From: a virus
Taxonomy: Duplodnaviria > Caudoviricetes
Strand: one strand, 5' to 3'
IMG/VR virus record: IMGVR_UViG_3300025314_000088
Coordinates: 1-26,649 of that record
Length of the DNA: 26,649 bases
Shown here: in pieces, positions 5,128 through 20,580 of the stretch
Position numbering within the stretch: the first letter of the stretch is position 1
Layout: each line of letters begins with the position of its first letter
Position numbers and translations under genes: made by a program
Notes under the pieces: model-generated
Told to the model about the DNA's origin: nothing
Seen by the model: only the letters and a program-made list of their open reading frames with translations
Database searches by the model: none

Positions 5128-5288
5128 CCTTCCACCGTCACCGTGATCTCTTCATCAGCCTTAACCAACTTTGCCAAATCGCCGATGAGCTTATCGTTGG
5201 GCAGATTAAACTCGATGACCAGCTTCCCGCCCTTGTCTCCAGTCGCCAGGATTCGGGAGGTAAGCTGTTTTATCTGCGCCTTGAACAT
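5124..5288 (-). CDS. Hypothetical protein (~54 aa)
   Basis: MFKAQIKQL... follows the upstream stop closely and overlaps the TerS start (ATGA). Confidence 0.6.
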   Translation of the reverse strand: MFKAQIKQLTSRILATGDKGGKLVIEFNLPNDKLIGDLAKLVKADEEITVTVEG

Positions 5289-5293
5289 GACCT

Positions 5294-5506
5294 TCACTTC
5301 TTCCCCCCGACCCACTTCTTGAACCTCTTCCACATCCCCTCCGGCGTCTGCCCATAGATAACCTCAAGCGCCTCGTTCGCTTCGGTGATCTCCTTCCCGA
5401 GCCGAATGATGTTGTCATTGACCGCCTTGCCGATTCTGAGCGACAATTCCTCAACCCGCTCCACACGGTCGTTCTTGAGGGCGATTCGCAGGCTCTTGTT
5501 TCCCAT
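5294..5506 (-). CDS. Hypothetical protein
   Basis: 70 aa, GGAG SD, amphipathic C-terminus MWKRFKKWVGG. Confidence 0.6.
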   Translation of the reverse strand: MGNKSLRIALKNDRVERVEELSLRIGKAVNDNIIRLGKEITEANEALEVIYGQTPEGMWKRFKKWVGGKK

Positions 5507-5838: not shown

Positions 5839-6900
5839 TTATTTATCCCACTTCGTAAGTTGCCATTCCGTCCGATCAAACTCACCGTGTTGGGGATGAA
5901 CCATCCAGCTTACCTGCTGAGGCGTGGCTTGGCGTCCCTCTTGGTGGTCATGAGCATCGGTTCCGCTGACGCTTCCTCCGACCCAAAAATATTGCGTCGT
6001 CATGGGCGAATGCCAATGACCGAGAATCACTTTATGGAATTTTGTGAAATCCGGGGCATTCATTCGCTTCATGGCCTCGCGTGCAACCTTTCGCTCAATG
6101 CCATAGAATGGGAAGCCCATCCACCCGGAAACTTCATGGCCATGACAAAGGAGATAATTTCTTCCGTTGACGTTAACGACCTTCTGGGGCTGCGCCCAAA
6201 TATTGACAGCCACGTTTTTGTGCGCCGACAAAAGCATCCTGGAAATATTCGCCACTACATACATCCAGTTATTGATCCCCCCCTCTTTCGATTGGGGTTT
6301 CTTCGTCATTCGCCCATGGTTATCAAGCGTGACGATATCGACAATGACGCGCTCAAAATGCGGAGCCATTGTAGACACTTGCTGCGCGAGAATCTCTCCG
6401 GCCTCAACCGCTTGCTGCGGGGCGGGGAAAGCATTTGTCACACGGAAGTCTTGAATATCTCCAGAGATCAAATCTCCCGTGACCAGGAATCGCGCCTCCG
6501 GAATCGAATAGACGGTGCGATGAAGTTCCGTCCAATCCATGATGTCTTGGACAAATCCGAATTGGCGAAGTCGGGATAGCTCGGGAGAGAAAACCCCGAA
6601 ACCTTCGATTTCGTCTCGGGTCTGAATCGCCCCATGATGAGCATCGGTAACATGGAGGACAACGGCAACATCGCGGTCAACGCGCGTTGTCTTGGGCGGT
6701 TTATATACTGGAGCCTGCGGTTTGATTGCGGGAATAGCGGCCAAAACTTCAGCCATGAGTTGATCGAGTTGGCCATGCTCTTTTTTGTATTCCTTGTAGG
6801 CAGAAGCGATTTGATCGCGTTCGGCCTGAAGGGCGAGAAGTCGTTCGGGTGGACGGAGAGCTTCCCTGACTTCGGAAATGCTTATCTCTTTTTTGGGCAT
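5839..6900 (-). CDS. Calcineurin-like metallophosphoesterase
   Basis: Motifs TDAHHG, GDLISGD, DNHGR, HGH and GHWH in canonical order after an N-terminal coiled coil. Confidence 0.85.
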   Translation of the reverse strand: MPKKEISISEVREALRPPERLLALQAERDQIASAYKEYKKEHGQLDQLMAEVLAAIPAIKPQAPVYKPPKTTRVDRDVAVVLHVTDAHHGAIQTRDEIEGFGVFSPELSRLRQFGFVQDIMDWTELHRTVYSIPEARFLVTGDLISGDIQDFRVTNAFPAPQQAVEAGEILAQQVSTMAPHFERVIVDIVTLDNHGRMTKKPQSKEGGINNWMYVVANISRMLLSAHKNVAVNIWAQPQKVVNVNGRNYLLCHGHEVSGWMGFPFYGIERKVAREAMKRMNAPDFTKFHKVILGHWHSPMTTQYFWVGGSVSGTDAHDHQEGRQATPQQVSWMVHPQHGEFDRTEWQLTKWDK

Positions 6901-6901
6901 T

Positions 6902-7351
6902 TCAGGTATCCCTTATTTTGAGAGCCTCGCCAATATCCAGAACACTTCCCCAGTACCACTTCTTCTCGCCTTCATCGAGCTTGAGGAGAATGCGAAAGGC
7001 CCGGAATCCGTCGGCGTTATTATCGAGCGTGCGCCGGAACCGATTGCGGTCCGTACCAGCCGTCTTCTGGCAGAGCTCAGCCTCAAGTATCAACCGGCCT
7101 TTAGGCAGGGCTGCAAGCTCCCGCCGGATGGCGGAGGCGACATCGTATTTCTCGATGACTTGGGAAAGATTGATGAATCCGGCGGTTGAGGTTACCGGTG
7201 TAACTTCCTGGGTCACAGCCCCATTCCCGAGCGTCGAATACTTATGGCAGACCGTGCATTGGATCATCTGCCGGCCCCGCTGCTTTCCTTGGCGGTGAAC
7301 TTTATCCGCCCCGCACTTGGGGCAGACAAGCGGTTTTTTTTCTTCGGTCAT
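6902..7351 (-). CDS. Zinc-ribbon protein, probably DNA-binding
   Basis: CPKCG...CTVC N-terminal ribbon followed by a helical domain. Confidence 0.65.
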   Translation of the reverse strand: MTEEKKPLVCPKCGADKVHRQGKQRGRQMIQCTVCHKYSTLGNGAVTQEVTPVTSTAGFINLSQVIEKYDVASAIRRELAALPKGRLILEAELCQKTAGTDRNRFRRTLDNNADGFRAFRILLKLDEGEKKWYWGSVLDIGEALKIRDT

Positions 7352-11526: not shown

Positions 11527-12510
11527 TCAATCCTCCTCCGACACTTTCTCCGACAGCATTTCTTCAACATGGCGTCCTTTGCTTAAATATTCGTGTATCT
11601 CTTGATTGTATTTTACAAACCGATAGTTACAGCCGGTAACACAATGGGAATCTTTGCCCGGATTGCCCGGAGGAGCAACTTTGTCACGAAACAAATGAGA
11701 ACAATAGTATTCATCCCCCCATTCGTCATACAAGCGTTCGGTCATTGATAAATAGCAGGGAATTTCAATGTTATGCGGAAAATTATTCCCACCCCTATAA
11801 TGGGTAGTCTTGAAAATTTGCTGGGAAACGGGGTCGAGTTCATTGGCATAAAAGAAAAGCTGGTCTACATCATCCCTGGTGAGGATTAGGGATTTGTTTT
11901 TTCCCTTATAAAAAGATGCCGATATGGAAAACAATCCAGGGAACTCTGTTTGGCAAAAACGGATGAAATTATCAAACCTAAAAGCGTTCTGATGCGTAGC
12001 GCAGAAAGAAACCGAAACATGGCTTAATGCCTGGCAACATCTTTTTATATTTTCTACGACTCTATCAAAATGGTCGCCTCCCGTTAATTCGTTCCATCTA
12101 TCGGCATGGCAATCATCCAAGGAGGTTTTAACCCGGAAAAGCGATTCAAGGGTTTTGTCTTGAGGCATAATCAATAGATTAGAATTCCAGGCAAAACGAG
12201 TATTGCCTTTTTGTCCTTGTATTTCCTTTTCCAACCAAGGAACCAGCGAAGGTTCACCCCCGGTAATGTGGACTACTCCTTGTGGGCCAGCCCTTTGAAT
12301 TAGGCTCCTAAATAATTCCTGCGTCATTATCTGAGAATTCTTCTTCCTGTTCGAACAATATCGACAAGTCATATTACAAAGCGACGTGACGTGAGCTACT
12401 AATCGCACAACTTGCGGAATTCCCCCAATGCTTAAAGCACGCTTAGTTTCTTCGGCTCGTCTAGCAAGACGGTCCCAAAATATTTCCTCTGTTTCCTCAA
12501 TCATCGTCAC
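11527..12510 (-). CDS. Radical SAM enzyme with a probable C-terminal auxiliary (twitch/SPASM-like) Cys cluster
   Basis: CNMTCRYC (CxxxCxxC), HITGGEP, C-terminal IPCY...YYCSH...HCVTGC. Confidence 0.9.
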   Translation of the reverse strand: MTMIEETEEIFWDRLARRAEETKRALSIGGIPQVVRLVAHVTSLCNMTCRYCSNRKKNSQIMTQELFRSLIQRAGPQGVVHITGGEPSLVPWLEKEIQGQKGNTRFAWNSNLLIMPQDKTLESLFRVKTSLDDCHADRWNELTGGDHFDRVVENIKRCCQALSHVSVSFCATHQNAFRFDNFIRFCQTEFPGLFSISASFYKGKNKSLILTRDDVDQLFFYANELDPVSQQIFKTTHYRGGNNFPHNIEIPCYLSMTERLYDEWGDEYYCSHLFRDKVAPPGNPGKDSHCVTGCNYRFVKYNQEIHEYLSKGRHVEEMLSEKVSEED

Positions 12511-14643: not shown

Positions 14644-15375
14644 TTAGAAAGGAACATCTCCGTCCTCCTCCGTCTCCGGCATCCTCTCCGACACCTGGGC
14701 CATCGTTTCTTCGAGTATCCGCTTCAACGACCCGGGCACAAGGATCTTCTTCTCCTCCCGTCGTTTTTCCTCAAGCTCCTCTCGCCGTCGCTTAATTTCC
14801 TCGATCTGCTTTCGCTTGTCTGCGCACCACGCCTCATGCTCGACCGCGTTTGCCTCCCAGAAACCCAGGGCGTTTTTTTCCTGAAGCCCGCGGACCGGAC
14901 CCGCGCTCTGCGGCAATCTCGCGAGGTTCATCTGGATCTTTTCATCTCGCTTCTTCTTCTCCCAGTTTGAGTATGCCGGTTCGACATTCCAAGAAGCCTT
15001 CTTCAACCGGCCCTTCTCGCAAGAGCAAAATCGGGCGACTAACTCGTCCAAAAATAACCCTAAATTTCCGCATTTCTGGCAGAAGTCAAGGGCCGAATAA
15101 TCCGGCGGTGCGCCTTCCCTTTCCGGCTCGTACACCTCATCCATACCTTCTTCTTTCATGTCTATAACGGCTGACTCAATCGTGGCCACCGAAGGGAATG
15201 GTTCCGAGGGAAACGGCTTGAAGGAAGACGCAACGAAGTCCACGGCCTTCTCAAACACCTCGTCTTCCACATAATGCAGGGCCCGCCAATACTCGGCCAG
15301 AACTCCGGCCTCGAGTTTCCGCCGAAACAACGCCTCCATCCTTCCGATCTGTTCCTTGAATACCATCTCTCTCAT
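14644..15375 (-). CDS. Replication accessory protein (helicase loader/inhibitor-like N-terminus plus Zn finger)
   Basis: ATGA-coupled to the initiator; EYWRAL...FPSVA helical domain, CQKC...CSC; ends EDGDVPF. Confidence 0.55.
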   Translation of the reverse strand: MREMVFKEQIGRMEALFRRKLEAGVLAEYWRALHYVEDEVFEKAVDFVASSFKPFPSEPFPSVATIESAVIDMKEEGMDEVYEPEREGAPPDYSALDFCQKCGNLGLFLDELVARFCSCEKGRLKKASWNVEPAYSNWEKKKRDEKIQMNLARLPQSAGPVRGLQEKNALGFWEANAVEHEAWCADKRKQIEEIKRRREELEEKRREEKKILVPGSLKRILEETMAQVSERMPETEEDGDVPF

Positions 15376-16067
15376 TTCAGCGTCTCTTTCTTTTTGATCA
15401 ACTCGCTGAATTCTTTCCATTCCTCATCTGTCCGCTTCGGGGTTCCGTCTTTTGTTCCCCCTCTGTCCTGCACCCGCGAAAGCCAGTTTGTGATGAACCG
15501 CCGCCAATTCGACTTCTTTCCCTTCTGTCTGTTCGAGATTATCCATTCTCTCATCCGGGCGAGTTCTATCTTGATGTCACAGACCGGATATGCTTCCTTC
15601 CATCTGATTAGATCATCTTCTGTTATTCCTTCCCATTTAAGAGAAGAGAATATAAAAGAAATATGAGGCAGAAGCAGAGATGTCACGCCTTTTTGTGACA
15701 CGTCACGCTTGTCACAGATTTTTTCTCTGTGCCTTCTTTGACGAATAGCATCGGGACTATCAGAGTAAAGAAATCTTCTATAGTGTTGATAATTCAATAA
15801 CTTCCATCCATGTTTAACCCTCTCGATTCGACGCCCTTCTCTCTTGCTGTTCCGTGATTGCGGGTCGGGTCCTAAAAATTTATCAAAAGCTCGCGTGACA
15901 ATTTCAATTGGTATGTGACAAACATTAGCTAAATAAGCAGGTGAAATTCTGGCGATTCCATCCGCCTCACATGAAGCCATTAGGGCAATCCAAATTTTGA
16001 ATGTATCGGAGTCTTCAGCCATGATAGATGATTGTAGAATCCCCTCATCCAGTTTCGTAAATCCCAT
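15372..16067 (-). CDS. Phage replication initiator (lambda O-like organisation)
   Basis: Start moved to ATG 16067 (MGFTKLDEGIL, GGGAG SD); winged-helix N-terminus, IRQRRHRE linker, C-terminal AYP...SNWRRFITNWL domain. Confidence 0.75.
   Translation of the reverse strand: MGFTKLDEGILQSSIMAEDSDTFKIWIALMASCEADGIARISPAYLANVCHIPIEIVTRAFDKFLGPDPQSRNSKREGRRIERVKHGWKLLNYQHYRRFLYSDSPDAIRQRRHREKICDKRDVSQKGVTSLLLPHISFIFSSLKWEGITEDDLIRWKEAYPVCDIKIELARMREWIISNRQKGKKSNWRRFITNWLSRVQDRGGTKDGTPKRTDEEWKEFSELIKKKETLK
15575..15920. repeat. GTCAC/GTGAC iteron-like repeats, putative replication origin
   Basis: Four clustered copies at 15681-15716 in both orientations, plus 15575, 15894 and 15914; next to an A-rich tract (~15636-15664) inside the initiator linker. 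Confidence 0.6.
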
Positions 16068-16086
16068 CAATTTCTCCCGATATGAA

Positions 16087-16183
16087 GACCCCGCCCCCTC
16101 CAGCGGACCAGTGCTTTGGATATCTGCTTGCGCAGACAGGAGGGGGCTAAGGGTTTTATTTCGTCTCGCATTGTCTGGTCCGC
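16087..16183 (-). ncRNA. Structured leader RNA, copy 2 (69-nt core plus 5' pairing segment)
   Basis: Core AACCC-UUA-GCCCCCUCC-UGUCUGC-GCAA-GCAGAUA-UCCAAA-GCACUGGUCCGC-U-GGAGGGGGC-G-GGGUC; upstream GCGGACCAG (16183-16175) pairs with CUGGUCCGC; covaries with copy 1. Confidence 0.85.
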
Positions 16184-16191
16184 ATGCCATG

Positions 16192-16220
16192 AATTTACCC
16201 CATCACTCCTGCGTTGTCAA
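16192..16220 (-). promoter_or_regulatory. Sigma70-like promoter for the replication operon
   Basis: TTGACA (16220-16215), 17 nt, TAAATT (16197-16192); AT-rich upstream. Confidence 0.75.
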
Positions 16221-16232
16221 GGATGATTTAAT

Positions 16233-16303
16233 AAAAAAACGGGGCCAGGCTCGTTGAAAGGAGGGTGGGGGGAATACCCAAAGAAAAGACCGGCCCGGCC
16301 CCG
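16233..16303 (-). terminator. Terminator-like structure with a large loop
   Basis: CGGGGCCGGGC (16303-16293) pairs with GCCTGGCCCCG (16250-16240), followed by T7; 42-nt pyrimidine-rich loop. Confidence 0.6.
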
Positions 16304-16308
16304 CATGT

Positions 16309-16470
16309 TCAAACTCTCCGCTCCCGTCTTCCCCGAGCCGCAATCTCCCCGACCCGCGTTCCCGGATCGGCCAGGTCGTGGAGATCCCCGCAGCCCAGGC
16401 ACTTCATCCACTGCGCGTCTATGGCCGAGTGCCAAACGAATAGGCCGCCACACTTTCCACAGAAAATCAT
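16309..16470 (-). CDS. Small zinc-ribbon protein
   Basis: MIFCGKCGG...KCLGCG; start uncertain. Confidence 0.55.
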   Translation of the reverse strand: MIFCGKCGGLFVWHSAIDAQWMKCLGCGDLHDLADPGTRVGEIAARGRRERRV

Positions 16471-16480
16471 AAGGTCGCGG

Positions 16481-17149
16481 TTAGGATGTTCGGCTGACGA
16501 CTGTTTCATCGAAGTACGTCTCAATTCCCGGGATGGCCATCTTCTCCCGCTGAATCCGGAAGATCTGCTCTACGCGGGCGCGGTCAAGCGCCAGGAATTC
16601 TCGGGGGACGGCGCCGAGGTCAACGACCCGCCACTTGGTCTCCTTGCGAAGGAATGTGCCTTGGGCCTTGATGGGATCAGGGATGATAGTCTTCGGCGTC
16701 TCGATGGCGACGGCCTCTTCGAAATGCTTCTCGGCTTCTACGGTCTTCCCCGCGTTCTCGGCGTCGATCGCCGCCTGCATTGCGGCCAGCCGCTTGCGCT
16801 CAGCCTCGGCAGCCTCCCGCCGGGCCTTGTCTAAGGCCTCCTGGCGAATTCGGGCCTGTTCGGCCAGCCATGCCCCGAGTTTCGGCTTGATAATTTTCTC
16901 TGCTTCGAGCAAGGGATTAAGATAGCGGGCACGTTGGGCCAGCGCCATGTCGTGGGCTTTGTTCGTGGCGTCCACGGTCGGATCAAAGGCTTCGTGGACT
17001 AACTTCTGCATCTGCTTATCCGCGGCCTGAAGGTCATTCGCCGCCCGGAATGTCGCATCGTTTGTGATCACCAGGGTGCGTGCCTTCTCCGGAAAGGACA
17101 GGGCGGTCTCGATGACTACCAAATTGCTGTTGACAATTTCGTTTGCCAT
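16481..17149 (-). CDS. Coiled-coil phage protein of the recombination module
   Basis: 222 aa, AGGAGGAG SD; long Ala/Glu/Arg-rich helix; C-terminal VPREFL...IPGIE motif. Confidence 0.75.
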   Translation of the reverse strand: MANEIVNSNLVVIETALSFPEKARTLVITNDATFRAANDLQAADKQMQKLVHEAFDPTVDATNKAHDMALAQRARYLNPLLEAEKIIKPKLGAWLAEQARIRQEALDKARREAAEAERKRLAAMQAAIDAENAGKTVEAEKHFEEAVAIETPKTIIPDPIKAQGTFLRKETKWRVVDLGAVPREFLALDRARVEQIFRIQREKMAIPGIETYFDETVVSRTS

Positions 17150-17159
17150 TATCTCCTCC

Positions 17160-18194
17160 TTAGAACGGGATCTCGCCGTCTCCGGCCTGCTTCTCGATGG
17201 CCTGCTTCTTGAGCTTGAAGAACTCGATGGCCTTATCGATCTCGGCCTTTGTCTTGAGCTCGGTAATCCGCTCAGCCTGTTCCTTCATGATTTTTCCGCC
17301 GAGATCCTGATAGCCCTTGAGCAGCGCTTCGAGGTCGTGGCCCGCCTTCACGAGCTCCGCCTTCTCGAAGGCCTCCTTTTCCTTGGCCTTCTTTTTCTCC
17401 TCGTCTTCTTTCGCTTTGGCCACATCCTTCGGTTTTGCTTCCAGCGCCGGCTTCGCCTCTTCGGTCTCGTCTTCGGGCTTGAAGCCGTTCGGGGGATAGA
17501 AGAGGTCGTCCTTGTCCTCGTCCGGGGGAGGCAGCAAAATCATCTCCGGTTTGACTTGCGCAGATTGCTGGAGTTGACGTAGAGTCATCTTTTCGTCCAG
17601 GTCGATCTTCATTGTGTAGTGCGTGGATTTCTTGGGCTTTCCCCCTTCCGCCTCGATGCGCTGTATTTCCATCTTTTGCCGCTTGAGAATCAAGGGGATC
17701 ATGCGCACACGTCCGGCGATGGCGCGTATCATATCAAGGCCGGAATTCAGATCGATGATGGAATTTTTGGAGCTTGTCGTGATTTGGTAAATTCCGAATC
17801 CTTGGACGTCCGGCATGAGAAAGCAGAAAATCCCTATCTGCTTACAGTCCCCCGACTTGAGATAATCGCAGGGACAGGGAATTTCCTTGAGGCCCCCTTC
17901 GTCAGCCCAGCAAAAGGCTTTTTCTCCATCCCCCTTGCACTGAAGCAGGTTTGTCGTATAACGCTTGTAGTATTGGGGAAAAAAGCGCTCAGATTCTTCG
18001 ACGGGAATCATGATCTTCAACTCTGTTGGCTTCTCTCCGAAGACTGCCTGAACCTCCGGGGGACAGACGAAATACTCAACCTCAGTAGGGTAGGGCGCGC
18101 AGGGCGTCCCGTCCTTCTTTACGGCCTTCTTCACGCCGAGATGGATTTTCCCAAGTCGCGGCATACGCCTGGCTTCTGAAATTCCCTTAATCAT
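17160..18194 (-). CDS. Gp3-like / recombination directionality factor-like protein
   Basis: MPRLGKIHLG, CKGDGE, CPC...C, YQITTSS.NS and IPLILKR motifs resemble the Gp3-like family; ends DGEIPF. Confidence 0.65.
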   Translation of the reverse strand: MIKGISEARRMPRLGKIHLGVKKAVKKDGTPCAPYPTEVEYFVCPPEVQAVFGEKPTELKIMIPVEESERFFPQYYKRYTTNLLQCKGDGEKAFCWADEGGLKEIPCPCDYLKSGDCKQIGIFCFLMPDVQGFGIYQITTSSKNSIIDLNSGLDMIRAIAGRVRMIPLILKRQKMEIQRIEAEGGKPKKSTHYTMKIDLDEKMTLRQLQQSAQVKPEMILLPPPDEDKDDLFYPPNGFKPEDETEEAKPALEAKPKDVAKAKEDEEKKKAKEKEAFEKAELVKAGHDLEALLKGYQDLGGKIMKEQAERITELKTKAEIDKAIEFFKLKKQAIEKQAGDGEIPF

Positions 18195-19353
18195 CTTTGC
18201 CTCCTTTGATTCTCAAAACATCTACGAAGGTCGTAATCTTGGCTTGCTCCAGAACGCCTGCGTCGATCATCCCGTCCTTGATGGCCGCCTGTATTTTTTT
18301 GAGGTCGGGTTTCGCAATGAGCAGCCATTTGTCACCGACTTGCTCCAGCAGATAATCCTCATCGAGGATCGATCTTTTCATGGTCCCGTGGATGATCGTC
18401 TGGCCATTAGCGCTTATCTGCTCAAGTCCCGTCGCCTTGAAGTACCGCATAAGCACGGCGCGAAGCCGGTCGACTTCATCCTCGACTTTCTTTTCCTCCA
18501 CCTTGAGCTCGATGTACCGGGCCGCCGCGCTCTCGACGAGCTCTTGTTCTGGTTTCTCAACCGTCTCATCGGCAACGAAAACCGGCGCTTCCGGCCTGGG
18601 TATGCCCTCCCAGCAGATCGAGTCCGCATATCTGCAATAGGTGCACTTGATCGAGTCCCGCTCGAAGGGCCGTATGGGGCACTCACCGGCCAGGATGGCT
18701 TTGTCGAGCGCCGTGAACCGCGCCTTGATAACCGCCACGCGCTCAGCGTCGTAGTCCACGCGCCAGCCGCAGAGAGGCAGGGGGTCGGCTATCATCGCCC
18801 GATCGGCATAGAGTATGAATCCGTAGTTGAGGACTTCGGACTGCCGGATGCTCTTGGCCGAGCTTTCCTTGAGCCGATCGATGTACCAGAGGAGTTGATC
18901 GATTTCGTCCTGGGTTGGCTCCTCTCCGCCGAAGTTGTAGGGATTCTTGGTCTTTATCTCGACAACGGCTATCCCCTTCTCCGTCTCGATGAAGCGATAG
19001 ACGGCTGCGATGAAGTCGAGGCGGCCCGTTGCTTTGTGTGCCCAATCTTCAACGCCCATTTCGATATCGCGTCCCGCCTCAAGCATCCCCCTCCGCCGGG
19101 CCCTGTCCTGGAGGTCATCATGGAGGAGATTGCCGGCGCTGAACATCATGAGCGTCTTGGCCGTGATGGGCCGCTTTTTCTCCGGGCAGGTGAAGTTGTA
19201 AAACGTGGCTCGATCACAAGCCCCGACATCACTTATGTAGAAATTGCCGCGTTTTTGATGATCTCGTTGGCCGGACCGGATTTTGAAATCATTCAGATAA
19301 CTCTCAGTGATTTCCTGGATGAGGAAATGGTCGCTGTTCAATTTCTCGATCAT
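18187..19353 (-). CDS. Cas4-like PD-(D/E)xK exonuclease (not CRISPR-associated here)
   Basis: SDVGACDR, GNLLH, GRLD, EIKT, QLLWY and CTYCRYADSIC (four-Cys Fe-S staple). Confidence 0.85.
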   Translation of the reverse strand: MIEKLNSDHFLIQEITESYLNDFKIRSGQRDHQKRGNFYISDVGACDRATFYNFTCPEKKRPITAKTLMMFSAGNLLHDDLQDRARRRGMLEAGRDIEMGVEDWAHKATGRLDFIAAVYRFIETEKGIAVVEIKTKNPYNFGGEEPTQDEIDQLLWYIDRLKESSAKSIRQSEVLNYGFILYADRAMIADPLPLCGWRVDYDAERVAVIKARFTALDKAILAGECPIRPFERDSIKCTYCRYADSICWEGIPRPEAPVFVADETVEKPEQELVESAAARYIELKVEEKKVEDEVDRLRAVLMRYFKATGLEQISANGQTIIHGTMKRSILDEDYLLEQVGDKWLLIAKPDLKKIQAAIKDGMIDAGVLEQAKITTFVDVLRIKGGKDD

Positions 19354-19622
19354 TGGAACCTCTCCCCCGCCTTGGCCTGCGAATCGAACGTGATCGCATC
19401 CTGGCCTGGCCGGTCCAGGTCCGCCGTCGCCTTGCGGATGGCGGCCTTGATAATATCTACCAGGTCCCCTTCTTCAAATTGCCGTCCGCTCCGAATTCCC
19501 TGAAGATATCTTTCCGTGCGGATACAGGCTTCCAATAGCGCCGGCGCCGCCGCAATCAGCAGGCTCTCGTGTTTCAGTCCCCGCGCTTCCCCCGAAGACG
19601 GGGACGCTTCTGTTTTGCTCAT
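19350..19622 (-). CDS. Hypothetical protein with IAAAPxLL motif
   Basis: LIAAAPALLEAC...AAIRKA; coupled at both ends. Confidence 0.7.
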   Translation of the reverse strand: MSKTEASPSSGEARGLKHESLLIAAAPALLEACIRTERYLQGIRSGRQFEEGDLVDIIKAAIRKATADLDRPGQDAITFDSQAKAGERFQ

Positions 19623-19900
19623 GCTATCCCCGCCAATCTCCGATTGCGTGCCCTTCTCCGCTCCCGCTTTTCCTCAGCTAATTGGAGCATGAGTTCTTTT
19701 CCACCCGGGCTGAGATTCCGGGGGTTATCCTTGACGAAAAGCCAGCGTGCCAGGCCGCCCCTTTTCTCCGGCAAGGAAATAACTGGACCCGCCGGCTTGG
19801 CCGGGAAAGCATGGGATTCGGTGGGCCTTCTATTTTTGTGCCTGAAGGCCGCAGCGACTTTCCCAAACAAACCCTTGAATGGAAATCTAATGGTGCTCAT
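19619..19900 (-). CDS. Basic hypothetical protein
   Basis: 93 aa, GAGGA SD, Arg-rich C-terminus. Confidence 0.6.
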   Translation of the reverse strand: MSTIRFPFKGLFGKVAAAFRHKNRRPTESHAFPAKPAGPVISLPEKRGGLARWLFVKDNPRNLSPGGKELMLQLAEEKRERRRARNRRLAGIA

Positions 19901-19907
19901 GCTATCC

Positions 19908-20147
19908 TCACTCAGTCATGGTCAAAATAATGGATAAATCGCCGAGCATCATTAGGCCTTCGACATAACCCGTGTTCGGATCGATTCGGAGTTGAGCTAA
20001 TTCAAGATATTTTTTGGCCAGCTCTCCGCTGTATTTTCCCTGCAAACGTGTTTCGCTGTTAGAAAATGTCAGGGAATATCCAGCATCGATCAGGTCTTGA
20101 ATCTCACCATAAACCTCACAGAATCTTTGTACGTTGATAATTTTCAT
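19908..20147 (-). CDS. Hypothetical protein
   Basis: 79 aa, GGGGGAG SD, ATGA coupling. Confidence 0.65.
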   Translation of the reverse strand: MKIINVQRFCEVYGEIQDLIDAGYSLTFSNSETRLQGKYSGELAKKYLELAQLRIDPNTGYVEGLMMLGDLSIILTMTE

Positions 20148-20389
20148 TTCTCCCCCGTTTCAAACAATTCCCCTTGCCCCGCTGAAAGGTTGAGGAGGGC
20201 GTTGCCGCCCCCCTCGTTTCCAGCGCCTGAAAGATTCATCTTGGATGTACCTCGATGGCACCTCCTTACTTTCATATGGATTTCAAGTCCGATATCGCCG
20301 GCCTGAGTATTGCAAGTCAGGCAATGACCGCGTCTGAAGAGCTGTTCATAACCGCAGCGCGGACAATAGGAGCGGTGGAGGCTAATCAT
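20144..20389 (-). CDS. First early gene: small zinc-ribbon protein
   Basis: YCPRCG...HCLTC; ends GQGELFETGEK; directly follows leader RNA copy 1. Confidence 0.55.
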   Translation of the reverse strand: MISLHRSYCPRCGYEQLFRRGHCLTCNTQAGDIGLEIHMKVRRCHRGTSKMNLSGAGNEGGGNALLNLSAGQGELFETGEK

Positions 20390-20406
20390 ATTCCGCCAAT
20401 ATGGGA

Positions 20407-20513
20407 GATCCCGCCTCGGCCAGCTCGGGAAAGCTTTGGTTATTACCTTGCGGCAATAGGCCGAGGCTAAGGATCATTTGCTCATTTGATTTGGTCATGA
20501 TGCTTTCCCGAGC
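20407..20513 (-). ncRNA. Structured leader RNA, copy 1 (69-nt core plus 5' pairing segment)
   Basis: Core GAUCC-UUA-GCCUCGGCC-UAUUGCC-GCAA-GGUAAUA-ACCAAA-GCUUUCCCGAGC-U-GGCCGAGGC-G-GGAUC; upstream GCUCGGGAAAGC (20513-20502) is a perfect 12-nt complement of GCUUUCCCGAGC. Confidence 0.85.
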
Positions 20514-20530: not shown

Positions 20531-20580
20531 AATTTATACCGATTTTCAGAAAAGTCAAGCTTTTTTTGCATTTATTTTCA
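20531..20580 (-). promoter_or_regulatory. Sigma70-like early promoter with UP-like A-tracts
   Basis: TTGACT (20558-20553), 16 nt, TAAATT (20536-20531); AAAATAAATGCAAAAAAA upstream; TTTTC-A-GAAAA palindrome at 20543-20553. Confidence 0.65.

Follow-up and report, generated by a model that had tools for sequence, protein, structure and literature searches.

The 26,649-nt stretch of DNA analyzed here (hereafter, the window; positions 1 to 26,649 of IMG/VR record IMGVR_UViG_3300025314_000088) belongs to a tailed-phage genome, G001, which is complete, with 48,666 bp and terminal repeats. The minus strand carries the annotated genes of the window, which are, in order, tail and holin-like genes, small early genes, genes for a Cas4-like exonuclease and a Gp3-like protein, the putative replication gene, and the methylase and terminase genes. 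Two 69-nt RNA elements, element 1 (20407..20475, minus strand; copy 1) and element 2 (16087..16155, minus strand; copy 2), each lie between a predicted promoter and the first gene of an operon, contain a guide segment complementary to a target near the 5' end of the same transcript, and are crossed by a short open reading frame (ORF). Each copy is a real structured leader RNA that has not been catalogued, and we propose that each is probably a self-locking translated leader, in which a ribosome and a pseudoknot would race for the start site of that short ORF. The first gene after copy 1 (20144..20389, minus) encodes an 81-aa protein with two CxxC motifs and has a weak Shine-Dalgarno (SD) sequence; the protein gave no family match and no usable match in ESM Atlas. 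The gene after copy 2 (15372..16067, minus) encodes a putative replication initiator or replisome organiser, a role that we assume from gene position and family resemblance. Its product matched no PHROG or Pfam family, and its start is confirmed by homologues in relatives that share the N-terminus MGFTKLD.

Promoter 1 (TTGACT-16-TAAATT; 20531..20558, minus), a consensus match only, heads the early/recombination operon, and promoter 2 (TTGACA-17-TAAATT; 16192..16220, minus), likewise a consensus match, precedes the replication gene. The first-pass annotation regarded these two as the best promoters, and they are indeed the top consensus matches on the coding (minus) strand, at 10/12 and 9/12, the latter tied with one site at 6016. 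Promoter-like sites in the window overall were not above chance (14 vs 10.9 ± 3.0), so both promoters remain predictions. No plus-strand promoter match was found near either copy.

The coordinates, the 69-nt length and the gap-free alignment of the two copies with 45/69 identity were exact as first annotated, and the next-best ungapped match to the 69-mer anywhere in the window reached 35/69. Both copies share one fold, consisting of a 5-bp outer stem (P1), an internal loop, a 9-bp stem (P2), a 7-bp tetraloop hairpin (P3), a junction and a guide hairpin (P4). This P4, a small stem of 3-5 bp capping the guide, is added in the free fold and produces a three-way junction, which was the minimum free energy (MFE) structure in all four full copies considered here, the two of the window and the two orthologues described below. 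A pair table of the window copies returned the seven double substitutions, the single A-U to G-U change and the single terminal mismatch that had been reported for the stems. The accompanying claim that unpaired residues are almost invariant holds between the two window copies but not in relatives, in which UUA/G, GCAA and CCAAA change; similarly, of the proposed fixed scaffold with a variable guide, the structured RNA and the copy-specific guides stand, whereas the scaffold sequence is not fixed across the four copies. As an alternative pairing, CCAAA was evaluated as the 5' strand of the guide hairpin in copies 1 and 2 and in the orthologue L186, leaving L124 aside, and was rejected: it was 3.5 (copy 1) and 2.7 kcal/mol (copy 2) worse than the open form and 7-10 kcal/mol worse than the MFE, coming near the MFE only in L186.

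That the element belongs to no recognized family was confirmed by an Rfam search of the whole window at E up to 10, in which three weak matches appeared, none of them at either copy; an Rfam search of 14 short loci, including L124 and L186, gave no C4, c4-2 or IsrK row. A self-cleaving ribozyme, which the size and the pseudoknot-like fold of the element may bring to mind, is extremely improbable, because no ribozyme model matched at the elements at E up to 10, the core shows little invariance, the leader ORF would go unexplained, and the helix order is unlike that of pistol and HDV.

Syntenic relatives were found by using protein anchors, and two of these, L124 in genome G002 and L186 in genome G003, have a copy 1 orthologue, preceded by a TTGACA promoter and followed by the same small CxxC gene. 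The first-pass annotation had suggested a covariance model from the two window copies alone; run on 706 kb of DNA from related phages, this model recovered L186 (E 1e-5) and L124 (E 4e-5) and had no other match below E 1.9. A four-copy model detected no further copies in 731 kb and 66 kb. In the four-copy alignment, fitted to the covariance model, all 86 stem cells are paired, and both partners differ in 12 of 23 pairs. None of 500 shuffles reached this, and sliding controls were 38-53% paired; as only four related sequences are involved, the shuffle result is to be read as support and not as a p-value.

Wider searches added no copies. An exact or strict pattern derived from the two copies matched, among viral contigs, only the record of the window itself; with a looser pattern, the window's two copies alone passed the structure filter among the 120 loci listed of about 170, and covariance model R3, applied to 98 of the other looser-pattern loci (L105-L122 left out), gave nothing below E 0.6. 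A core pattern returned 57 loci, of which 3 pass, all known already. Comparison of both leaders by blastn with 50,697 annotated phages yielded only fragments at E 6-7. A metagenome scan with the CxxC protein (37/64 parts) gave at least five loci, none with the element directly upstream, and a genome scan with the Gp3-like protein gave one distant locus, without the element. No description of the element was found in the literature searched, including a motif search of the readable supplement files of PMC10690425, which gave no match; the Fremin 2023 supplement may hold a catalogue entry.

Invariance across the four copies is limited to CC-U where P2 meets P3, W-C-Y-A within the junction, U-GG following the guide and a few bases of the stems. 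Such a cluster at the junction could suggest a protein or ligand site, at which the downstream CxxC protein, a host or phage protein, or a metabolite would shift the element towards the free fold or the pseudoknot; a small CxxC protein is indeed encoded after copy 1 in all three phages, as well as after one of the two self-pairing leaders of another genome (G017). However, the invariant bases are few, L191-L194 and L214 have the CxxC gene but no element next to it, and no riboswitch family in Rfam matched, so that we consider this explanation unlikely.

Guide 1 (12 nt; 20423..20434, minus) forms 12 bp with target 1 (12 nt at about +12..+23; 20502..20513, minus), which ends 3 nt before the leader AUG. 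Guide 2 (12 nt; 16103..16114, minus) pairs with target 2 (16168..16183, minus) through 9 nt (16183-16175) and, beyond a 4-nt bulge, another 3 nt (16170-16168) that include the UG of the leader AUG, and hence pairing in copy 2 extends into the start codon itself. These pairings had been described in the first-pass annotation, together with an N8 segment that differs at 7 of 8 positions between the copies, as can be seen in the sequence, and with orthogonal specificity, which was borne out by predicted duplex energies (-25.6 and -21.4 kcal/mol for cognate vs -4.4 and -9.7 kcal/mol for cross pairs). Each of the four copies has one contiguous guide and, in all four, a target with 9-12 bp of complementarity lies upstream in its own leader. 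The suspected covariation between loop and 5' end was also found: in a landmark-based table, 10 of 10 shared columns were paired in the three orthologues, with 5 double changes. Opening the stem that caps the guide is predicted to cost 2-5 kcal/mol, and the guide-target helix to provide -18.5 to -24.5 kcal/mol, leaving a net gain of -13.7 to -18.3 kcal/mol before pseudoknot loop penalties. A second target was sought within 400 nt downstream, but the best duplex there did not surpass those of random windows, of which 20/39, 40/40, 3/36 and 34/38 did equally well. We also considered a conserved 5' hairpin that would present the target and rejected it, as it is not evident in L186.

The ORF through the element was absent from the first-pass annotation. 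Leader ORF 1 (38 codons; 20382..20498, minus) crosses element 1 and its stop overlaps the start of the first gene; leader ORF 2 (34 codons; 16067..16171, minus) crosses element 2 and ends on the start of the replication gene (UGAUG). In each of the four copies, exactly 3 nt separate the main target helix from the first AUG; a contig end from run X5 provides a fifth case, with a window-like promoter, an L124-type target, 3 nt and ATG, the guide region not being covered. Bases flanking the AUG vary and the AUG is constant. Since the AUG lies 3 nt past the target, the guide would cover the ribosome-binding (SD) position of the coupled leader. The four frames, of 38, 34, 36 and 48 codons, each span the entire element, with stops at +8, +1, +4 and +4 relative to the start that follows, and the distance from the AUG to the guide end is 76, 69, 73 and 73 nt. 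Dinucleotide shuffles reproduced this layout in 0.25, 0.057, 0.39 and 0.11 of trials; the product of about 6e-4 is generous in that the frame was fixed and optimistic in that the copies share ancestry. The leader peptides are unrelated among the copies, and copy 1 reads the scaffold in another frame, which argues that passage of the ribosome, and not the peptide, is conserved. The genes that follow have a weak SD in copy 1 and L186 and a predicted SD hairpin in copy 2 and L124; folding prediction places the small hairpin over the SD of the replication gene at 16073..16088 (minus), with a mean unpaired probability of 0.45.

The replication frame itself is open for 41 codons further upstream through element 2, from an ATG at 16190 (16068-16190, minus), which is not significant alone, and read-through transcripts could yield a longer replication protein bypassing the lock. 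In replication-type leaders (16185 in the window; L218, L220, L225, L235, L230 and L233), the predicted start site tends to coincide with an AUG or GUG that opens a leaderless frame of 8-13 codons overlapping the target.

Sequence and covariation show the fold, the helix between guide and target, an AUG at a constant 3 nt, an open reading frame, a stop codon on the start of the next gene and a near-constant AUG-to-guide spacing of 69-76 nt; translation of the leader, its coupling to the next gene, repression by pairing and a kinetic race are what we infer. On balance, we think it likely that each copy is a fold-back lock. The leader start would emerge about 70 nt before the guide is complete, and the kinetic window would thus be some 70 transcribed bases long. 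A ribosome loading on the leader in this period would unfold the element and be handed to the start of the first gene. If the transcript folds first, the guide stem would open and the pseudoknot would bury the ribosome site of the leader, leaving the first gene of the operon untranslated; because the target is near the free 5' end, it could thread through the loop. Transcripts left untranslated may then terminate by polarity. The outcome would be an output of early and replication-initiator proteins that is capped per transcript and tied to ribosome availability, and the different guides would prevent cross-pairing between the two operons.

Several observations weigh against such a lock. The leader SD is weak (-2.7 to -4.3 kcal/mol with a generic anti-SD), the leader ribosome site is predicted to be partly paired before the guide exists (unpaired probability 0.27-0.77), and the downstream ribosome-binding site is predicted to be only moderately occluded (0.45-0.64). 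No clear intrinsic terminator match follows either window copy. A run-through leader is not universal in looser analogues, being absent in L223 and L235 and ending at +20 in L220. The four full copies come from three phages only, too few for setting the covariation against a phylogeny, and a purely cis lock does not alone explain how fast the cassette has diverged.

The same complementarity might instead be used in trans, in the manner of C4 and CI: an excised element would accumulate and pair with the 5' target of new transcripts, either its own or those of an incoming phage of the same specificity, providing negative feedback or kin-specific exclusion. This is compatible with a cis lock and, in our judgment, possible although rather unlikely. 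The free fold, with three stems, a tetraloop and a variable loop, resembles that of C4 as described in PMC5320573, and the guides are orthogonal within the G001 genome, as are, in part, the twin guides of G017 (-12.9/-23.0 cognate vs -10.2/-8.4 cross). In L124, P4 carries a double change involving a base left unpaired by the target, which suggests that the unbound state is selected. L124 and L186 are identical at 67/70 promoter positions and 143/150 positions of the first gene (45/50 third positions) but at only 44/71 positions of the element and 33/57 leader columns, and the contrast between conserved flanks and diverged element and leader indicates a cassette that is either swapped or fast-evolving; the X5 contig end, as noted, combines a window-like promoter with an L124-type target. 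In addition, relatives lacking the early-promoter element (L126, L188, L190 and L214) carry HTH (helix-turn-helix), Arc-like or CII-like regulator genes at that position. On the other hand, no second downstream target was found, unlike seqA and seqC of CI, there is a single recognition segment, and the outer stem starts with GAU, AAC, GGC and GAC and not with a uniform GGW. A short RNA that is not processed would, furthermore, be occupied by its own target.

Gene content also bears on action in trans. No integrase, recombinase, repressor or partition gene was recognized in G001, G002 and G003 where tested: tyrosine integrases and serine recombinases were not found in any of the three, and repressor or partition families were not found among the ORFs scanned (37 in the window and 24 elsewhere in G001). 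Conversely, the integrase-bearing G004, G014 and G024 gave no element match (whole records for G004 and G024; 14 kb for G014), a contrast whose numbers are too small for a test and in which two of the three element-bearing records are 85-89% complete. Immunity, as raised in the first-pass annotation, is thus unsupported in its classical prophage form, as neither a downstream target nor an integrase, recombinase or repressor was recognized in this complete genome. The G001 phage may conceivably have a plasmid-like or carrier state. A broader proposal, which we offer as doubtful, is that the unit is an RNA-only, protein-free operon switch of non-integrating phages that replaces Cro/CI-type regulators; the cis race would gate early and replication genes such that the phage commits only in translationally active hosts, and the excised guide would serve in trans as a swappable specificity cassette for recognition or exclusion among related phages.

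Just before promoter 2, the recombination operon is closed by a terminator-like hairpin with a large C-rich loop and a U tract (16231..16304, minus). Copy 2 and promoter 2 are missing in L124 and L127, and in L124, which lacks promoter 2, the early transcript must pass this conserved hairpin before reaching the replication gene. This arrangement, as well as the presence behind each of two predicted promoters of one element about 70 nt long, a length like that given for put (PMC9378689), would suit a put-like antiterminator, a nascent RNA that modifies RNA polymerase for terminator read-through. In the window, however, a separate promoter follows the hairpin. Put comprises two side-by-side stem-loops with sequence-specific contact bases, whereas a nested three-way junction of hypervariable sequence is present here, and the AUG, the coupling and the guide-target covariation would have no explanation. 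Antitermination of the put type, which the first-pass annotation had entertained, is accordingly not favoured by either the fold or the leader features, and we regard it as very unlikely.

The hairpin at 16231-16304 has features of its own. Its loop holds an anti-SD-like CCCUCCUUU, a motif retained in L124, L127, L186, L188, L192, L224 and L227, and in several relatives the CCCUCCUUU hairpin is directly 5' of the replication gene without an intervening promoter. The hairpin might act as another self-pairing control or as a small RNA (sRNA). Just 5' of it is a small Zn-ribbon gene (16309-16509, minus) that is kept in relatives and gave a weak Mu Com-like Pfam match (E 0.005, below cut-off). Com is an RNA-binding translational activator.

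Self-pairing leaders may form a wider class. Among 22 replication-gene loci examined, 8 passed a promoter threshold of at least 8/12 directly upstream, and in 6 of these 8, including window copy 2, the 5'-end duplex was stronger than in all 25 shuffles; L230 and L233, which fall below the promoter threshold, have a 7-bp version. The analogues fold into an outer stem, a hairpin and a guide hairpin, often with a U-rich tail, and of the 5 other replication leaders with a significant duplex, L218 and L225 have a run-through leader that is coupled. Covariance model R2 detected none of the replication-leader analogues (best E 0.13), nor did Rfam, and hence they are analogues or very distant kin. Promoter-wide analogue scans were too loose (45 matches vs 21-26 in swapped controls) and were not used as counts. 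Among individual cases, G017 has two self-pairing leaders whose guides differ, located before a small CxxC gene in one case and before the replication gene in the other (L264, minus strand, ~5231-5410, at ~49,990 of G017; L230, ~6870-7000). L229 (2985-3130) has a strong promoter and then a cloverleaf, in which a loop flanked by CCGG is complementary to the 5' end, and is more C4-like in appearance.

Elsewhere, a radical SAM gene occurs in the window (11527-12504, minus), and a gene block at ~37,600-43,800 of G001 comprises sialyltransferase-like, methyltransferase and collagen-like tail genes. A weak Flavo-1 match at 20011-20101 (minus; 28.8 bits, E 0.023, gathering score 42) lies inside a 79-codon ORF and is probably due to chance.

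The unit is compact (about 130 nt), with programmable pairing over 10-12 nt, natural orthogonal versions and fixed geometry, and is therefore directly testable in a reporter and may become a translation limiter for synthetic biology. It also suggests how phages without a recognizable repressor or integrase restrain their early and replication genes, and it would extend leader logic of the C4/CI type beyond enterobacterial temperate phages.

Among known systems, HK022 putL/putR share the presence of two ~70-nt copies after two promoters (PMC9378689), but their fold differs, and the part of that article consulted describes neither long-range pairing nor a leader ORF for put. The analogy with C4 and CI drawn in the first-pass annotation was well chosen, for theirs is the closest fold: P1/P7 C4 (RF01695), c4-2 and P4 CI are likewise leader-embedded RNAs in which the outer stem is interrupted, one hairpin has a tetraloop and a variable specificity loop is complementary to an upstream site in their own transcript. 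According to PMC5320573 and PMC4825925, and to rows of the C4 alignment in the PMC2864571 supplement, C4/CI RNAs act on a ribosome-binding region, and P4 CI has two sites, seqA and seqC (PMC4825925). C4, however, has two recognition loops, a' and b', instead of a single guide, and C4 and CI have a downstream target (a2/b2 and seqC, respectively) where none was found here; the masked site of the present element, unlike theirs, is that of an ORF beginning upstream of the RNA and continuing through it. Without the second loop, the downstream target and an Rfam score, the element is not filed as C4, c4-2 or CI.

IsrK, a Gifsy-1 leader RNA that is both sRNA and mRNA, with orf45 translationally coupled to anrP (PMC4825925), offers a likeness in its upstream ORF coupled to a real gene. 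It differs in that IsrK is located 5' of orf45, possesses a terminator of its own and is an activator in trans, whereas the pairing segment here is inside the leader ORF, is predicted to be repressive and has no Rfam match. In R1 (CopA-tap-repA), IncI2 (repR-repA) and IncI1/IncB (repY-repZ) plasmids, an initiator is coupled to a leader peptide under RNA-pairing control, with the coupling of leader to repA in R1 and IncI2 covered in PMC8053102. The overlap of the copy 2 leader stop with the initiator start is of this tap-type layout, as is that of the predicted ORFs in copy 1 and the orthologues. R1-type plasmids use an opposite-strand countertranscript, while the complement here is on the same strand; the IncI pseudoknot activates, while the present one is predicted to repress; and, unlike in the plasmid systems, the unit here also heads a non-replication operon. 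In the MS2 maturation gene's 5' untranslated region, a cloverleaf sequesters the ribosome-binding site after a kinetic delay, so that brief translation is allowed (PMC4615214). MS2 is an RNA phage, with the complement upstream of the SD and a delay caused by a metastable hairpin, whereas the complement in the present leaders is ~70 nt downstream and accompanied by a coupled leader ORF. The ingredients of the unit, namely the C4 fold, the tap-type coupling and the MS2-type kinetic window, are individually known.

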